64,000 bases of DNA from a virus (IMGVR_UViG_3300012642_000011:64001-128000), one strand, 5' to 3'; positions 43,525 to 47,872 are shown, counted from the stretch's first letter. Numbers and translations are program-made. Notes: generated by a model from the letters alone, not told the origin.

Positions 43525-44271
43525 ATGGTCAAGTATCACGTGAGCAGCAAAACTGGCGAGATGAACAGATGCAGGGCAGATAAGATTGAATGCCCCTTGG
43601 GTTCAGTACAGCATTTTGAGAACATGAAGGAGGCACATTCTTTTTCTGAGGAAGTTTTGGAGAGATCATTCTCTTCTGTGTCGTCCTTGTCTTCTACAAA
43701 TCATTCTTCTCTTGTATCAACATGGAGAAATTCTCTTTCTGATGATGAGAGGGATGCTTGGGAATCGTATGGTTCCTTTGAGCATGGTGAGATCAATGAT
43801 GCTTTGAGACGTGATGATGTGGGCAGTTTATCTGATGATCAAAGAAAAGTGATTGATAACATGGATAAAGCGTTGGCGAGGTGCCCTCGTAGAAAATCAA
43901 ATCATACTCTTTTTCGTGGGGTGAAGACAGCAAATTCCGATCTTCCTCGCAAGACTGACATGAATCCTGTAGAATGGGTGAAGAAGCATATCGGGGAGGC
44001 TGGTAACGAGGTTGTCTTCAATGAGTTCGTGTCTACTTCTACATCTGAAGACATATCTCATGAGTTCTCTGGTATGAATGCTCCTGATTATATCTCTGGT
44101 GTTCTGATGAAGATTGATACTACTCAATCAGCGAAGTGGAATGAGGATGGATCTTATGAGGAAGAGGTTACCCTTGCCAGAGGAACAAAGTTCAGGGTTA
44201 TCAGTGTTGATATGGATCACAAGGTAGAGGGATATTCAAGACCATTGATCCATCTCGAAGAGATCTCTTAA
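43525..44271 (+). CDS. arginine-specific mono-ADP-ribosyltransferase (C3/Vip2/Alt-like R-S-ExE fold)
   Basis: GGGGAGGG RBS; catalytic triad elements TLFRGV (R), FVSTSTS (STS), YEEEVTLARGTKF (ExE, aligns with C3 GQEVLLPRGTEY); upstream Y..IN..LR motif (WESYGSFEHGEINDALRR). Confidence 0.75.
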   Translation: MVKYHVSSKTGEMNRCRADKIECPLGSVQHFENMKEAHSFSEEVLERSFSSVSSLSSTNHSSLVSTWRNSLSDDERDAWESYGSFEHGEINDALRRDDVGSLSDDQRKVIDNMDKALARCPRRKSNHTLFRGVKTANSDLPRKTDMNPVEWVKKHIGEAGNEVVFNEFVSTSTSEDISHEFSGMNAPDYISGVLMKIDTTQSAKWNEDGSYEEEVTLARGTKFRVISVDMDHKVEGYSRPLIHLEEIS

Positions 44272-44378
44272 TATGAGATCGTTAATTCCAAAAACGCTTG
44301 ATGTTTTCATTGATACCGTTACACGAAAGCGCGTAAAGCGGCGAGGTCTTCAGCCTCGCTGATGTAAGCGCAAGTGTA

Positions 44379-44780
44379 TTATTTCCAGTGGCCTTGCTTT
44401 TTCAGGTACTTATCAACATGATCAGCACTCACATCGCCAATAGTAGCAGCATAATAACCACCACTCCACAAATAATGACGACCACCCCAATAAAATCTTC
44501 TCAAATGATCCCCCTGCATCTCCCACAAATGATGAGAACTCAAAGACTTCAAACGGTTCACTAAACCAGAAACAGAATAAGTCCCAGACATCCTCACTAC
44601 CAAATGAACATGATCCCCATCTTCAACAGCAACACGCTCTAACTTGCATGAAGACTTCGACACAGCATACTCAATCGCCCTCACCACATCACCCTCAATA
44701 CCACTAAAACACCCCCTACGAAACTTCGTAGCAAAAACAAAATGATAACGCAAATTCTGAACAGCACCCATCACAACCAA
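44379..44780 (-). CDS. tnpA: IS200/IS605 Y1 (HUH) transposase TnpA
   Basis: 133 aa; RYHFVFATKFRR; HUH motif GDHVHLVVRM; C-terminal catalytic Tyr region HVDKYLKKQ. Confidence 0.85.
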   Translation of the reverse strand: MVVMGAVQNLRYHFVFATKFRRGCFSGIEGDVVRAIEYAVSKSSCKLERVAVEDGDHVHLVVRMSGTYSVSGLVNRLKSLSSHHLWEMQGDHLRRFYWGGRHYLWSGGYYAATIGDVSADHVDKYLKKQGHWK

Positions 44781-44823
44781 CCTTTTGATATAATAAGATA
44801 AGATAGCCTATTATATCAAGGAG

Positions 44824-46125
44824 GTGACAATCATGGCACAACGCACAAGCGCACCAAAAACCCTCACAGAAGAAGCCAGACTTGCCAAAAACAAGAGAAT
44901 CAAAGAAGCAGGAAAAGCAACTCGTGAACGCAGAAAAACCATGATTGTCAAAGTGTATGACCTAAAAATCGTACAATCTTCCATGAATAAACAGCAAAAA
45001 GAGGCTATTAAAAGTATTTTCCATGAGGCTAAATGGATTCGCAATGCTGCCCTTGCAGCAGAACGTTTTGATCTTGACTACATCAAAGAACTCAAAGGTG
45101 AAGTTGAGGTAAAAGTCCCCAACGGAGATACTGAGAAAAGAGCAATCAAACATCTTGGAAGCCAAATGCAGCAAAGCGTGATAACTCAATTGAGCAATGA
45201 TCGCAAATCATTATCTGCATTGAAGAAGAATGGTCGCAAGATTGGAAAACTAAAGTTTGTTCGCAATGTCGATTCTATCAATCTCAAACAATATGGCGTG
45301 ACTTATGATCTGATTCCTAATTCAAAAGGGATGATGACTAAAATCCGTGTTCAGAACATTCCCGGCAGATTACGTGTTCGCGGTTATGAGCAATTGTGTG
45401 CTGATAGTCTTGAGTTTGCGAATGCTAAATTAGTGTATCGTGCTGATGGTTATCATTTAGTAGTGACCACTTATCAGCCACGAGCAGTTAAGGTTGCACC
45501 TACGAATAAAATCGGTGTGGACATGGGTGTAAAGAATGCTTTAACTCTTGATAATGGTGAGGTTGTTAACGCGATTATTACTGGCAAACAGGAGAGGATG
45601 GCGAGATTGCAGAGAAAACTGTCTCGTCAGGTAAAGAACTCCAACAGTTATCGCAAGACTTTGGCTAAGATCAAGAGAGAGTATCAGAATACTGATCATT
45701 TGAAGAATGAGTTTGCTAATCAATTAGTAAGCAGGTTAACTAAGGATAGTGTAGTGTTCTTCCAAGATGAAATGTTAGTATCGTGGAAGAACAAGAATTC
45801 GAAAGCACGTGGTTCTAAGAAGATCCATCATGGTGTGCTTGGTCGTGTTAAAGCGCGCTTGAAAAATCATGAGAATGCGGTAATGCTGCCTAAGTGGGTG
45901 GCTACTACTGCGTGGTGTTCTCCTTGTGGTGTCTTGACGAAGCATGATGTTAATATGAGTGTTTTCTTGTGTTCTTCTTGTGGTTTTAGTGAGGATCGTG
46001 ATTCTCATGCTGCGAGGAATATGGTTATTCTTGGTGAAAGGTACTTGAGTTTGGTCACCTCTGGAACGGAGGGTTGTGCTGGTGGAGGGATTGTTAGACT
46101 TAAGAATGATCTGTATAAGGTCTGA
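44824..46125 (+). CDS. tnpB: TnpB (IS605 OrfB) RuvC-like RNA-guided nuclease family
   Basis: 433 aa; RuvC-I IGVDMGV; zinc finger CSPCG...CSSCG; RuvC-III DRDSHAARNM; AAGGAGG RBS. Confidence 0.9.
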   Translation: MTIMAQRTSAPKTLTEEARLAKNKRIKEAGKATRERRKTMIVKVYDLKIVQSSMNKQQKEAIKSIFHEAKWIRNAALAAERFDLDYIKELKGEVEVKVPNGDTEKRAIKHLGSQMQQSVITQLSNDRKSLSALKKNGRKIGKLKFVRNVDSINLKQYGVTYDLIPNSKGMMTKIRVQNIPGRLRVRGYEQLCADSLEFANAKLVYRADGYHLVVTTYQPRAVKVAPTNKIGVDMGVKNALTLDNGEVVNAIITGKQERMARLQRKLSRQVKNSNSYRKTLAKIKREYQNTDHLKNEFANQLVSRLTKDSVVFFQDEMLVSWKNKNSKARGSKKIHHGVLGRVKARLKNHENAVMLPKWVATTAWCSPCGVLTKHDVNMSVFLCSSCGFSEDRDSHAARNMVILGERYLSLVTSGTEGCAGGGIVRLKNDLYKV

Positions 46126-46201
46126 TTAAGCATATTCCTGTGAAGCCAGAAACGGCGTTGTCTTTAGCATCGCCGTAGTTCATTTCTGTGTTTGATAAGA
46201 T

Positions 46202-47872
46202 ATGTTCGATTCCATTCCGTGTCGAGAAAGAGTGAGTATGATTATCATCCCTGTGCCAGTGATATTGCGGGTTTCTGATAGGCACCCTCTATTGCGATCA
46301 ATCTCTGAAACAATCGAAGTAAATAGATACGACGTTCCTTCCTATAATATCGAATATGATGACATTGATAGGGATATACTGAATATTTTACTTGAAAGTG
46401 CTGAAGAGTTAAACATCAAGTATCTGATCAAATCATTGAAGTATGCATTGAGAACTTTGGATGGTGAAGAGTTAGCAATCCCTCATCCTTGTGTATCGTT
46501 GTTCATGATCATGCACTACATTTTAAAGAACTCACATCATGGATGGGTCTATCATAAAAAAGGTTCTGACGACACTGCATACTATCAGCCTTATGCTATT
46601 GATGGAATAGGCAGGTCTTTTTCTTCAGGCGATGATATGAGTATTAATTTTGTTTCTTTTTCGATTAAAGAAGGAGCACATGTGCATTCTAAAGTGCAGC
46701 TTCTTAGATCTCGTGGATTCCCAAAGAATATCCTTCAAGAGAATGATCTCTATATTGGCAACGACGAATTGATTCAAAAGTATTATGATACTTTAGATCT
46801 CCTTTTTAATGATCAAAATGGTTTGATGCGTCAAGGGTATGGTCAGCAGATCATTGTGAACGGTGTTGAGTATGAAGAAGATATCAGAGCTGAGTATAGG
46901 TCTTCAGAGAAGTATAGTGCGCGTGTAAAGAACAGGAAGGCAGTGTTGGAATCTATTGTTACAGATAAGATTGCAAAGAATCCTTCGATTTACAAAGAGT
47001 CATATGAGAACAGCCTATATAAAAACCCGCAGAAAATAGAAGATGTGGTTGATATCCCAGCATTGCTGGATGTGAAAGTCTTTGATCTTACAGCGGAAGA
47101 ATTTCTCATATGTAGTGCTTTCAACATACAAAGATACATTTATGATGATTCTATTAAAGATAAACTCATCTTGCCTTCTGCACATAAAATGTTGATTGAT
47201 GTACTAACAAGCCAGGATTCACAAGGGATTAGTGACATCATCTATGGAAAAGGTCAAGGAACATTAATCCTTTGCAAAGGTGAACCCGGTATAGGAAAGA
47301 CATTGACTGCTCAAGTTGTCTCAGAAGTCTTACACAAGCCTTTGTACACCATGGATTCTTCTTCCATTATTTCATCATGGGACATTCGTAAAAAATTGGC
47401 TAAGTCTTATGATTTGGTTTACAAATGGAATGGAATTCTCCTCTTTGATGAAGTAGATACACTCATCAGTCGCCGTGGCACTGATCTTGAAAAGAACAGA
47501 GTAACTGCTGAACTACTTAGATCCCTCGAAGAATTCAAAGGAATCGCTTTCTTGACAACGAACAGGCCACAGGATATTGATGATGCTTTTCTATCCCGTT
47601 GCATTGCCATCATTGATTATGGCGTGCCTGTAGGTGATGATGCTATTAAGGCATGGAAATCTATCGGATTGCAGGTGATGGGAGAAGAAATCATTGATGA
47701 TGCTTTAGCAGAGGCTTTGGAGCGTGATTATCACGATATGCCCCCAAGAGACATGAGGCAGTTGTTAAGACTATCATTCCAGCTGGCAACTTATCAAGGC
47801 GAACGTGTTACAAAGGAAATCATTGATTCCTGTGCTGTCTTCAGAGGATATGCCCCACATCCTACTCTTTGA
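46202..47872 (+). CDS. AAA+ ATPase (classic AAA clade) with about 330-aa N-terminal domain of unknown function
   Basis: Walker A CKGEPGIGKTLTA; Walker B LLFDEVDTL; second region of homology TTNRPQDIDDAFLSR; the gene starts about 7 nt after the IS right end, so the true start is uncertain (an ATG at 46238 has a better RBS). Confidence 0.6.
   Translation: MFDSIPCRERVSMIIIPVPVILRVSDRHPLLRSISETIEVNRYDVPSYNIEYDDIDRDILNILLESAEELNIKYLIKSLKYALRTLDGEELAIPHPCVSLFMIMHYILKNSHHGWVYHKKGSDDTAYYQPYAIDGIGRSFSSGDDMSINFVSFSIKEGAHVHSKVQLLRSRGFPKNILQENDLYIGNDELIQKYYDTLDLLFNDQNGLMRQGYGQQIIVNGVEYEEDIRAEYRSSEKYSARVKNRKAVLESIVTDKIAKNPSIYKESYENSLYKNPQKIEDVVDIPALLDVKVFDLTAEEFLICSAFNIQRYIYDDSIKDKLILPSAHKMLIDVLTSQDSQGISDIIYGKGQGTLILCKGEPGIGKTLTAQVVSEVLHKPLYTMDSSSIISSWDIRKKLAKSYDLVYKWNGILLFDEVDTLISRRGTDLEKNRVTAELLRSLEEFKGIAFLTTNRPQDIDDAFLSRCIAIIDYGVPVGDDAIKAWKSIGLQVMGEEIIDDALAEALERDYHDMPPRDMRQLLRLSFQLATYQGERVTKEIIDSCAVFRGYAPHPTL

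Follow-up and report, generated by a model that had tools for sequence, protein, structure and literature searches.

We consider it very likely that positions 44323-46183 (+ strand) of the viral sequence IMGVR_UViG_3300012642_000011:64001-128000 are a complete, probably active insertion sequence (IS) of the IS605 group, inserted by peel-and-paste transposition 3' of a TTAC tetranucleotide. The analyzed sequence has 64,000 nt and is referred to as the window; coordinates are counted from its first nucleotide. The element (1861 bp) lacks terminal inverted repeats, and its target is not duplicated. It codes for a Y1 HUH transposase (TnpA) and for TnpB, an RNA-guided RuvC nuclease, and is located in a 95-105-nt spacer between an ADP-ribosyltransferase (ART) gene and an AAA+ ATPase gene. 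A complete IS200/IS605 element with both genes between these neighbors had been described in an initial annotation, and this is borne out by protein domains, catalytic residues, hairpins, the TTAC/AAAG pair of target and guide, empty sites and RNA covariation. All testable features of the family and of TnpB systems (obligate mobile element-guided activity, OMEGA) were found. The element is a new, unnamed member of the IS200/IS605 family.

Transposase and nuclease genes

The transposase gene tnpA (44379-44771, - strand) codes for a protein of 130 aa, which matches PF01797 at 2.8e-26, above the cutoff. ATG 44771 is the likely start codon; an alternative TTG at 44780 would result in 133 aa. The protein contains the sequence EDGDHVHLVV, and the divergent Y1 transposase with GDHVHLVV that had been reported for the minus strand is thus correct. 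A Y1 HUH transposase is characterized by an HUH motif and a catalytic tyrosine; both are present, as DHVHL and, on the C-terminal side, in DKYLKKQ. TnpA aligns end to end with the solved structures 2EC2, 2FYX/2XM3 and 2A6M, which come from Sulfolobus, ISDra2 and IS608, with the HUH motif and the tyrosine in register.

The nuclease gene tnpB (44833-46125, + strand) codes for 430 aa (PF01385 and PF07282). The open reading frame (ORF) can be extended to GTG 44824, which gives the 433 aa initially reported. The likely start is ATG 44833, which has a Shine-Dalgarno sequence (AGGAGG) 7 nt upstream and corresponds to the 430 aa in deposited contigs. A RuvC D...E...D triad and a zinc finger/TNB domain are found, in agreement with the RuvC I, II and III motifs and the zinc finger described before. 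The RuvC-I Asp is in GxDxG, RuvC-II is in an invariant Q-D-E, and RuvC-III has Arg-Asp. The residues D230, Q311-D312-E313 and R389-D390 and the cysteines of CxxC...CxxC are invariant or near-invariant in 120 homologues (117-120 of the 120 have D230, D312/E313, D390 and the four Cys). The RuvC-II carboxylate is either D312 or E313, the alignment being ambiguous. Inactivating substitutions in RuvC were looked for and none were found; the catalytic residues of TnpB are intact.

The two genes are separated by a spacer of 61 nt, in which a palindrome (44785-44819; 16-nt arms, 88%) was detected by an inverted-repeat search. It contains TTGATA-18-TATTAT on both strands, a match to the sigma-70 consensus only, and is a putative shared divergent promoter or operator for tnpA and tnpB. 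Scans of the window for sigma-70 and terminator consensus sequences performed no better than on shuffled sequences.

Ends of the element and target site

Five agreeing lines of evidence set the ends at 44323 and 46183: the points at which homology to related elements stops, the IS-less allele L024 (see below), conserved motifs (AGTTCAY and TTTAY), the AAAG guide, and the hairpins. The left end (LE) begins 51 nt past the ART stop codon, which it had been thought to abut. The right end (RE) had been placed about 7 nt before the AAA+ start, an error of 11 nt; it is separated from ATG 46202 by 18 nt and from ATG 46238 by 54 nt.

Homology to the nearest relatives (contigs L014/L015 and L004-L013) stops exactly at 46183 and, on the left side, at or near TTAC. 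All of these elements, including that in the window, end with ...TCGCCGTAGTTCAT and then diverge. On the left side, the shared hairpin is preceded by GTTAC (window and L014) or TTTAT (L004). The TTAC flank (44319-44322, + strand) is assigned as TnpA target and left cleavage site, and is the predicted target-adjacent motif (TAM) of TnpB. It is ~16-17 nt from the foot of the LE hairpin, and TTTAY is found ~17 nt 5' of this hairpin in about 12 family members (those with a locatable LE).

The imperfect LE hairpin (44329-44371, + strand; stem 44339-44346/44354-44361, loop TCTTCAG) was obtained by an inverted-repeat search. Its single-stranded DNA (ssDNA) fold has -14.1 kcal/mol (z = -3.0 relative to shuffles). 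Directly 5' of the hairpin foot, the sequence reads AAAG (44335-44338, + strand), which is the predicted left guide. In IS608, an AAAG left guide recognizes the TTAC target (PMC5027513), and the combination of AAAG with TTAC found here follows this rule. The imperfect RE hairpin (46152-46176, + strand), from the same type of search, has a stem of 9 bp, interrupted by one T.T mismatch, and a TCTTTAG loop. Its ssDNA fold has z = -3.4 relative to shuffles, and the corresponding RNA helix (helix 7) covaries. The two hairpins are homologous: the LE model also matches the RE hairpin, and both have 7-nt loops. They had been recognized in the initial annotation; both are subterminal and on the same (top) strand.

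The 3' terminus of the element is AGTTCAT (46177-46183, + strand), in which TCAT is the predicted right cleavage site. The motif AGTTCAY closes nearly all RE matches among 92 family members. GAAA (46149-46152, + strand) is the predicted right guide. Its pairing with TCAT is modelled on the right end of IS608, for which we take the corresponding pair to be GAAT and TCAA, so that the two elements would differ in this point.

IS608 from Helicobacter pylori is otherwise similar in many aspects. It also codes for a Y1 HUH TnpA and for TnpB, and has subterminal hairpins instead of inverted repeats. It is inserted 3' of TTAC without target duplication and has AAAG 5' of the LE hairpin foot (PMC5027513). 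In both elements, the RE hairpin is followed on its 3' side by the RE cleavage site, a few nt away. However, TTAC is ~16 nt from the hairpin foot in the window but 19 nt in IS608. While tnpA and tnpB are divergent in the window, we presume them to be co-oriented in IS608. Also, the proteins are only distantly related (for TnpA, E = 1e-5 to 2A6M), and the host replicon of the window element is a huge phage.

Predicted omega-RNA and guide

A structured RNA is predicted to cover the 3' end of tnpB and the RE and to end at the transposon boundary. This omega-RNA (also called right-element RNA, reRNA) has a scaffold at 46001-46183 (+ strand), which consists of the last ~123 nt of tnpB and 58 nt of the RE. 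The helices are 46058-63/46067-72, 46079-83/46145-49, 46087-91/46134-38, 46152-59/46169-76 and the closing helix 46017-20/46178-81. The initial estimate of an omega-RNA across the RE at about 46050-46200, with the guide reading into phage DNA, was close to this.

The RNAalifold consensus from nine homologous 3' ends is made up of five helices, and 14 of the 28 pairs show compensatory changes. A covariance model based on this consensus (R1) has 92 matches in 100 sources, all at tnpB 3' ends. Exactly one match was found in the window (46001-46183, 169.6 bits), and thus no second copy of the element was detected in these 64 kb. In the R1 alignment, 88.2% of the pair cells are standard, compared with 36-47% when the partners are slid by 1-3 columns. 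Both sides have changed in 23 of 28 pairs, and no shuffle attains the observed values. No Rfam family was found for the scaffold at gathering or permissive thresholds. An IStron, in which an IS605 element is joined to a group I intron, was rejected, because a permissive Rfam scan of 44200-46400 did not reveal any intron family.

The reRNA of ISDra2 (Deinococcus radiodurans) consists of the 3' end of tnpB, the RE and ~16 nt of the flank, with a guide length of ~16-20 nt (PMC13565253). Because the scaffold ends at the transposon boundary, the next 16-20 nt from 46184 are predicted to be the guide by this precedent. The predicted guide segment (46184-46203, + strand; TTCTGTGTTTGATAAGATAT) is unique in the window and corresponds to the DNA target in the empty site. 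Together with the TAM, the predicted target sequence is TTAC-TTCTGTGTTTGATAAG. Both the predicted guide and the AAA+ gene are on the same strand, and the guide overlaps with the 5' leader of the latter.

ISDra2 is the reference system for an RNA-guided TnpB, and the layout of its reRNA corresponds to that predicted for the window element. TnpB from the window aligns to the ISDra2 TnpB structures (8BF8/8H1J) with the D/E/D residues and the zinc finger in register, but similarity is low (E = 8e-7). RuvC-II is in the invariant QDE and not in the usual xED, and the scaffold sequence is unrelated to that of ISDra2. In ISDra2, the TAM is the target flanking the LE (PMC13565253). The TAM of ISDra2 is TTGAT, whereas TTAC/TTTAY is predicted here.

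The established mechanism of the family (PMC5027513 and the studies cited below) suggests how the element may operate. TnpA would cut the top strand 3' of TTAC and 3' of TCAT, thus freeing a single-stranded circle, and would reseal the donor as ...GTTAC|TTCTGTGTTTG... The tnpB transcript would be processed to an omega-RNA with the scaffold at ~46001-46183 and a guide of 16-20 nt from 46184. TnpB with this omega-RNA would cleave IS-less copies which have TTAC followed by a flank that matches the guide, and recombination with occupied copies could then restore or spread the element. The occupied site would be spared, as there the target is preceded by TTCAT and not by TTAC. Retention and homing mediated by TnpB have been described (10.1101/2023.03.14.532601, 10.1101/2023.11.20.567912, PMC13565253). 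In a phage, with many-copy replication and co-infection by related phages, this reaction would function as homing.

Occupied and IS-less alleles

The element is present with identical junctions in 19 contigs from many samples. A comparison with genomes that lack the insertion had been proposed initially as a check. Two IS-less alleles (L024 and L185) were found in public assemblies; they confirm the insertion and do not contradict it.

L024 is near-isogenic with the window. It consists of window positions 43287-44307, GTTAC, and window positions 46184-46544, being identical to the window in all 1021 nt on the left side and in 360 of the 361 nt on the right. The junction (GTTAC|TTCTGTC; ...GATGTTTT-GTTAC|TTCTGTCTTTG...) shows that the insertion occurred 3' of the tetranucleotide TTAC without target-site duplication. 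The 10 nt CATTGATACC (44308-44317, + strand), which are found in every occupied allele, are missing from L024, and it has a C at 46190 where the window has G. This sole SNP (single-nucleotide polymorphism) in 1.4 kb is at position 7 of the predicted guide.

L185 is a syntenic 19-kb contig which is ~95-96% identical to the window. Its junction (TTCAT|TTCTGTG) is ...GATGTTTTCAT|TTCTGTGTTTG... and it lacks 12 nt (TGATACCGTTAC), including TTAC. Both IS-less alleles agree on the right boundary, and in both, one edge of the extra difference is exactly at the insertion point (44322|46184). A sliding-identity comparison of L185 with the window did not reveal a co-conversion tract around the IS. The IS-less alleles show that the element has recently been gained or lost.

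Perfect excision is predicted to leave the donor joint CATTGATACCGTTAC|TTCTGTGTTTG and to result in a circle with the RE-LE junction GTAGTTCAT|ACGAAAGCG, also given as GTAGTTCAT|ACGAAAGCGCG. Neither variants of the empty site nor the RE terminus were matched in pattern scans of JGI metagenomes (0 matches each). Several independent metagenome assemblies break in or at the IS: L003 ends at 46183, L018 and L019 end at 44370, and five contigs (L189, L190, L191, L194 and L195) start within the IS, at 46077, 46085, 46154, 46120 and 46120, respectively. Such breaks fit with a mixture of occupied and empty populations in these samples, or with repeats that the element has in common with a sibling element. 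Along with the presence/absence polymorphism, they provide indirect evidence of single-strand excision and integration.

Several points weigh against the interpretation as an active element that was cleanly inserted 3' of TTAC. Transposition, omega-RNA expression and cleavage are all deduced from the established mechanism of the family and from the sequence. A copy at another site was not recovered, so that mobility to new sites is likewise a deduction. Neither IS-less allele corresponds to the window minus the IS (L024 lacks 10 nt and has G46190C, L185 lacks 12 nt), and for this reason the history of the site is more than one clean insertion or excision. If only L185 were considered, the element would begin at 44312 and its target would be TTCAT. 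The alignment used for covariation was fitted to the model, so that the pair counts are somewhat inflated. The terminal helix (helix 7) could equally reflect the ssDNA hairpin that is used by TnpA; there is no such alternative for the helices within tnpB (46058-72, 46079-83/46145-49 and 46087-91/46134-38).

Alternative explanations

The differences at the junctions may be independent of TnpA and TnpB, the two IS-less alleles being older or unrelated haplotypes of a fast-evolving spacer. We lean slightly towards this explanation. Between L185 and the window, 19 gap positions are found in each of two spacers. There are only two empty alleles, which provide no statistical power, and the SNP in L024 could be a low-coverage assembly error. 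On the other hand, it would be a coincidence of the haplotypes that one edge of the difference coincides with 44322|46184 in both alleles, that L024 is 100% identical over 1021 nt on the left while its only SNP on the right (in 361 nt) is at guide position 7, and that the 5 nt before the target in L185 are identical to the RE terminus TTCAT.

There is also a more speculative reading, which we consider rather doubtful. TnpB and its omega-RNA might act as an RNA-guided homing drive in a population of huge lytic-type phages, and the IS-less genomes that persist might be escape alleles which are resistant to cleavage. L185 would have escaped by the lack of the TTAC TAM, having the protective TTCAT in its place. 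L024 would retain the TAM but have a mismatch at guide position 7. In neither IS-less allele is an unaltered TTAC combined with a target that fits the guide perfectly, as would be expected after selection imposed by TnpB. We give this reading a low weight because of the sample size (n = 2) and the fast evolution of the spacer.

It is improbable that the element extends 12 nt further to the left (44312-46183) and was inserted 3' of TTCAT, which would then be target and TAM. This delineation is prompted by L185, which reads GTTTTCAT|TTCTGTG; relative to this contig, the insert is TGATACCGTTAC...GTAGTTCAT after TTCAT. A weakly similar motif (TGGTGAC/TTGATAC) is found 5' of TTAC in L014 and L004. 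However, TTCAT is 28 nt from the foot of the LE hairpin, compared with ~16-17 nt for TTAC, and the corresponding flanks are GTTTC in L014 and ATGAT in L004. At -17, about 12 family members retain TTTAY and not TTCAY, and the AAAG guide predicts TTAC. The near-isogenic L024 has GTTAC joined straight to the right flank, whereas L185 is ~5% divergent and has further indels in the spacer. TTCAT was thus rejected as the true target on the basis of family homology, TTTAY, the AAAG guide and the indels in L185.

Least probable of all is that the element is an immobile relic, or that its TnpB was domesticated by the phage, e.g., as an RNA-guided repressor or an anti-competitor nuclease acting at the AAA+ promoter region. 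The element is nearly fixed (19 occupied contigs versus two empty ones), the predicted guide is over the AAA+ 5' leader on the same strand, and TnpB-derived regulators (TldR) exist in phages (10.1101/2023.11.30.569447); however, TldRs are nuclease-dead whereas the RuvC triad is intact here, tnpA is intact and both ends are complete, the guide of an IS605 element always matches its own right flank so that the overlap with the AAA+ leader is automatic, the target in the occupied genome lacks the TAM, and recent mobility is suggested by genomes that are nearly identical but differ in the presence of the element.

Relatives and prevalence

The nearest TnpB homologues share 81% identity (L014/L015, Logan SRR32661710/11, with tnpA) and 64% (L004-L013, without tnpA). 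In L004-L013, the element consists only of a 39-nt LE hairpin, tnpB and the RE (e.g., L004 5887-7328), with a TTTAT flank. The contigs (66-91 kb, from ERZ1031316 and JGI 3300012313) are phage-like with a GC content of 39%. The L004-type element co-occurs with the phage from which the window originates in ERZ1031066, ERZ27289883, ERZ1031407, ERZ27289746 and JGI 3300012313. Its GC content is similar to that of the phage, but it is located outside the window; it may be a sibling in the same huge genome or in a co-occurring phage.

The closest genome-assigned TnpB relatives (44-47%) are from Actinomycetales (Varibaculum, Actinomyces and Pseudoclavibacter). The wider TnpB clade (35-47%) has members from IMG/VR and from Actinomycetales, Synergistaceae and Spirochaetales. 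Among isolated phages, the closest TnpB is that of Thermus phage phiLo (35%). Relatives from the clade are similar to the window element in having the GxDxG, QDE and RD motifs, the AGTTCAY terminus, the scaffold helices, the LE hairpin and a TTAY flank. They differ in insertion sites and guides, and most of them lack tnpA. An adjacent tnpA was found in 14 of 80 viral loci (the 80 loci kept of 146 IMG/VR relatives) and in 10 of 80 bacterial loci.

The initial annotation considered such an element to be rare in virulent-phage-like genomes. This does not hold: TnpB matches were found in 158 records of isolated phages, 146 relatives of the TnpB clade were confirmed in IMG/VR, and TnpB has been reported to be frequently phage-encoded (PMC12607003). 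The IMG/VR relatives were obtained by an alignment-based scan; single-protein scans of IMG/VR with TnpB and with the AAA+ protein did not reveal close relatives. The relatives often occur as two or three per contig of 100-250 kb. Because of these two or three clade copies per contig, it is concluded that this TnpB lineage proliferates within large phage genomes. Contigs with multiple copies are represented by L108/L119, L124/L142/L158, L136/L163, L129/L143 and L128/L132, and IMGVR_UViG_3300045988_155053 has three.

Neighboring genes and genomic context

(a) The ART gene (43525-44271, + strand; 248 aa, PF03496 at 8.5e-13) is the left neighbor and is outside the element. Its longest ORF starts at 43492, and the gene calls in deposited contigs start at 43525. 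A palindrome with 9-nt arms (GATCTCTTA A TATGAGATC, 44262-44280) spans the stop codon of the ART gene, without a T-run after it. It is retained in L024 and changed in L185.

(b) The right neighbor, also outside the element, codes for the AAA+ ATPase (46238-47872, + strand; 544 aa, PF00004 at 9e-17). It had been assigned to 46202-47872 (556 aa). The end of the gene and the domain assignment are confirmed, but all deposited gene calls use 46238 as start, and ATG 46202 is an upstream alternative that would result in the 556 aa. The start at 46238 is preceded by GAGAAAGAGTGAG. L185 differs from the window by 3 substitutions within 46202-46237 (36 nt), and 2 of these would be non-synonymous. For these reasons, 46238 is probably the real start codon, which would place the RE 54 nt upstream of it. 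An exact look-up of the 556-aa product did not return a record, since gene callers use the 544-aa start.

(c) Both flanking ORFs were left intact by the insertion. The insertion may have split an operon or displaced the AAA+ promoter. As tnpB is co-oriented with the AAA+ gene, read-through into the latter is possible. The insertion is at least tolerated by the phage, since the occupied allele is found in most of its sampled genomes. A k-mer search in the intergenic regions of the window for a recurrent phage promoter motif gave nothing usable. The AAA+ protein is 33% identical to AR9 g083 / PBS1 gp083. The AAA+ leader has a weak (9/13) resemblance to early-promoter sequences from AR9, from which no conclusion was drawn. 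AR9 is the closest isolate by AAA+ protein; synteny with it is not conserved, so that it is uninformative for the junction.

(d) A 332-kb metagenomic contig from ENA (L016) contains the window with 100% identity, and the AAA+ protein of the window is also present on a 437-kb contig. On this basis, the replicon that carries the window is a huge phage of at least 330 kb. A nucleotide match to the region was not found among the isolated phages in INPHARED, in either near or distant search mode. The GC content of the element (41.6%) is close to that of the window (41.8%). Nearly all genes in the window are on the + strand, tnpA being essentially the sole convincing gene on the minus strand, and the GC skew flips its sign across tnpA. 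The only other sizeable ORFs on the minus strand are at 33339-34361 (340 aa) and 52802-53419 (205 aa); neither has a Pfam match. A 1.27-kb gap in the series of + strand genes is located at 33232-34500.

(e) Directly upstream of the ART gene is the gene for the large subunit of ribonucleotide reductase (RNR; 38718-43298, 1526 aa), which is broken by two intein-like insertions. These have Hint/Intein_splicing and LAGLIDADG_3 matches in the Pfam list and represent a further type of selfish element. Directly upstream of the RNR gene, a 577-aa protein with a match to DUF723 is encoded (36674-38407). Nine tRNA genes (Lys, Asn, Phe, Asp, Tyr, Leu x2, Arg and His) are found on the + strand at the end of the window (61892-63981), of which only 6 score at or above the Rfam gathering cutoff for tRNA.

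(f) The window also codes for a class A penicillin-binding protein (20156-22645; 829 aa) with transglycosylase, transpeptidase and PASTA domains. Two further loci code for a protein with four PASTA repeats (51649-52791) and for an S26 signal peptidase (48334-49086). Such envelope-related cargo (penicillin-binding protein, PASTA protein and S26 signal peptidase) is unusual in a phage and hints at a Gram-positive host.

Implications

The element in itself is a textbook member of the IS605 family, which resides on a phage of at least 330 kb. Its presence and absence in otherwise syntenic genomes (L024 and L185) put its identity far beyond chance. For genome annotation, the gain is the corrected ends of the element and the probable start of the AAA+ gene, together with the notion that TnpB elements are common in large phages.

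TnpB-driven retention and homing have been shown for bacterial chromosomes and plasmids. In the case described here, an occupied, a near-isogenic empty and a divergent empty allele are publicly available with their exact junctions, and represent a natural test bed. As the predicted TAM (TTAC) and the guide (TTCTGTGTTTGATAAG...) are explicit, retention and homing by TnpB among co-replicating phages are directly testable. If the IS-less genomes were indeed escape alleles, they would be evidence from a natural population that TnpB imposes selection on viral genomes.

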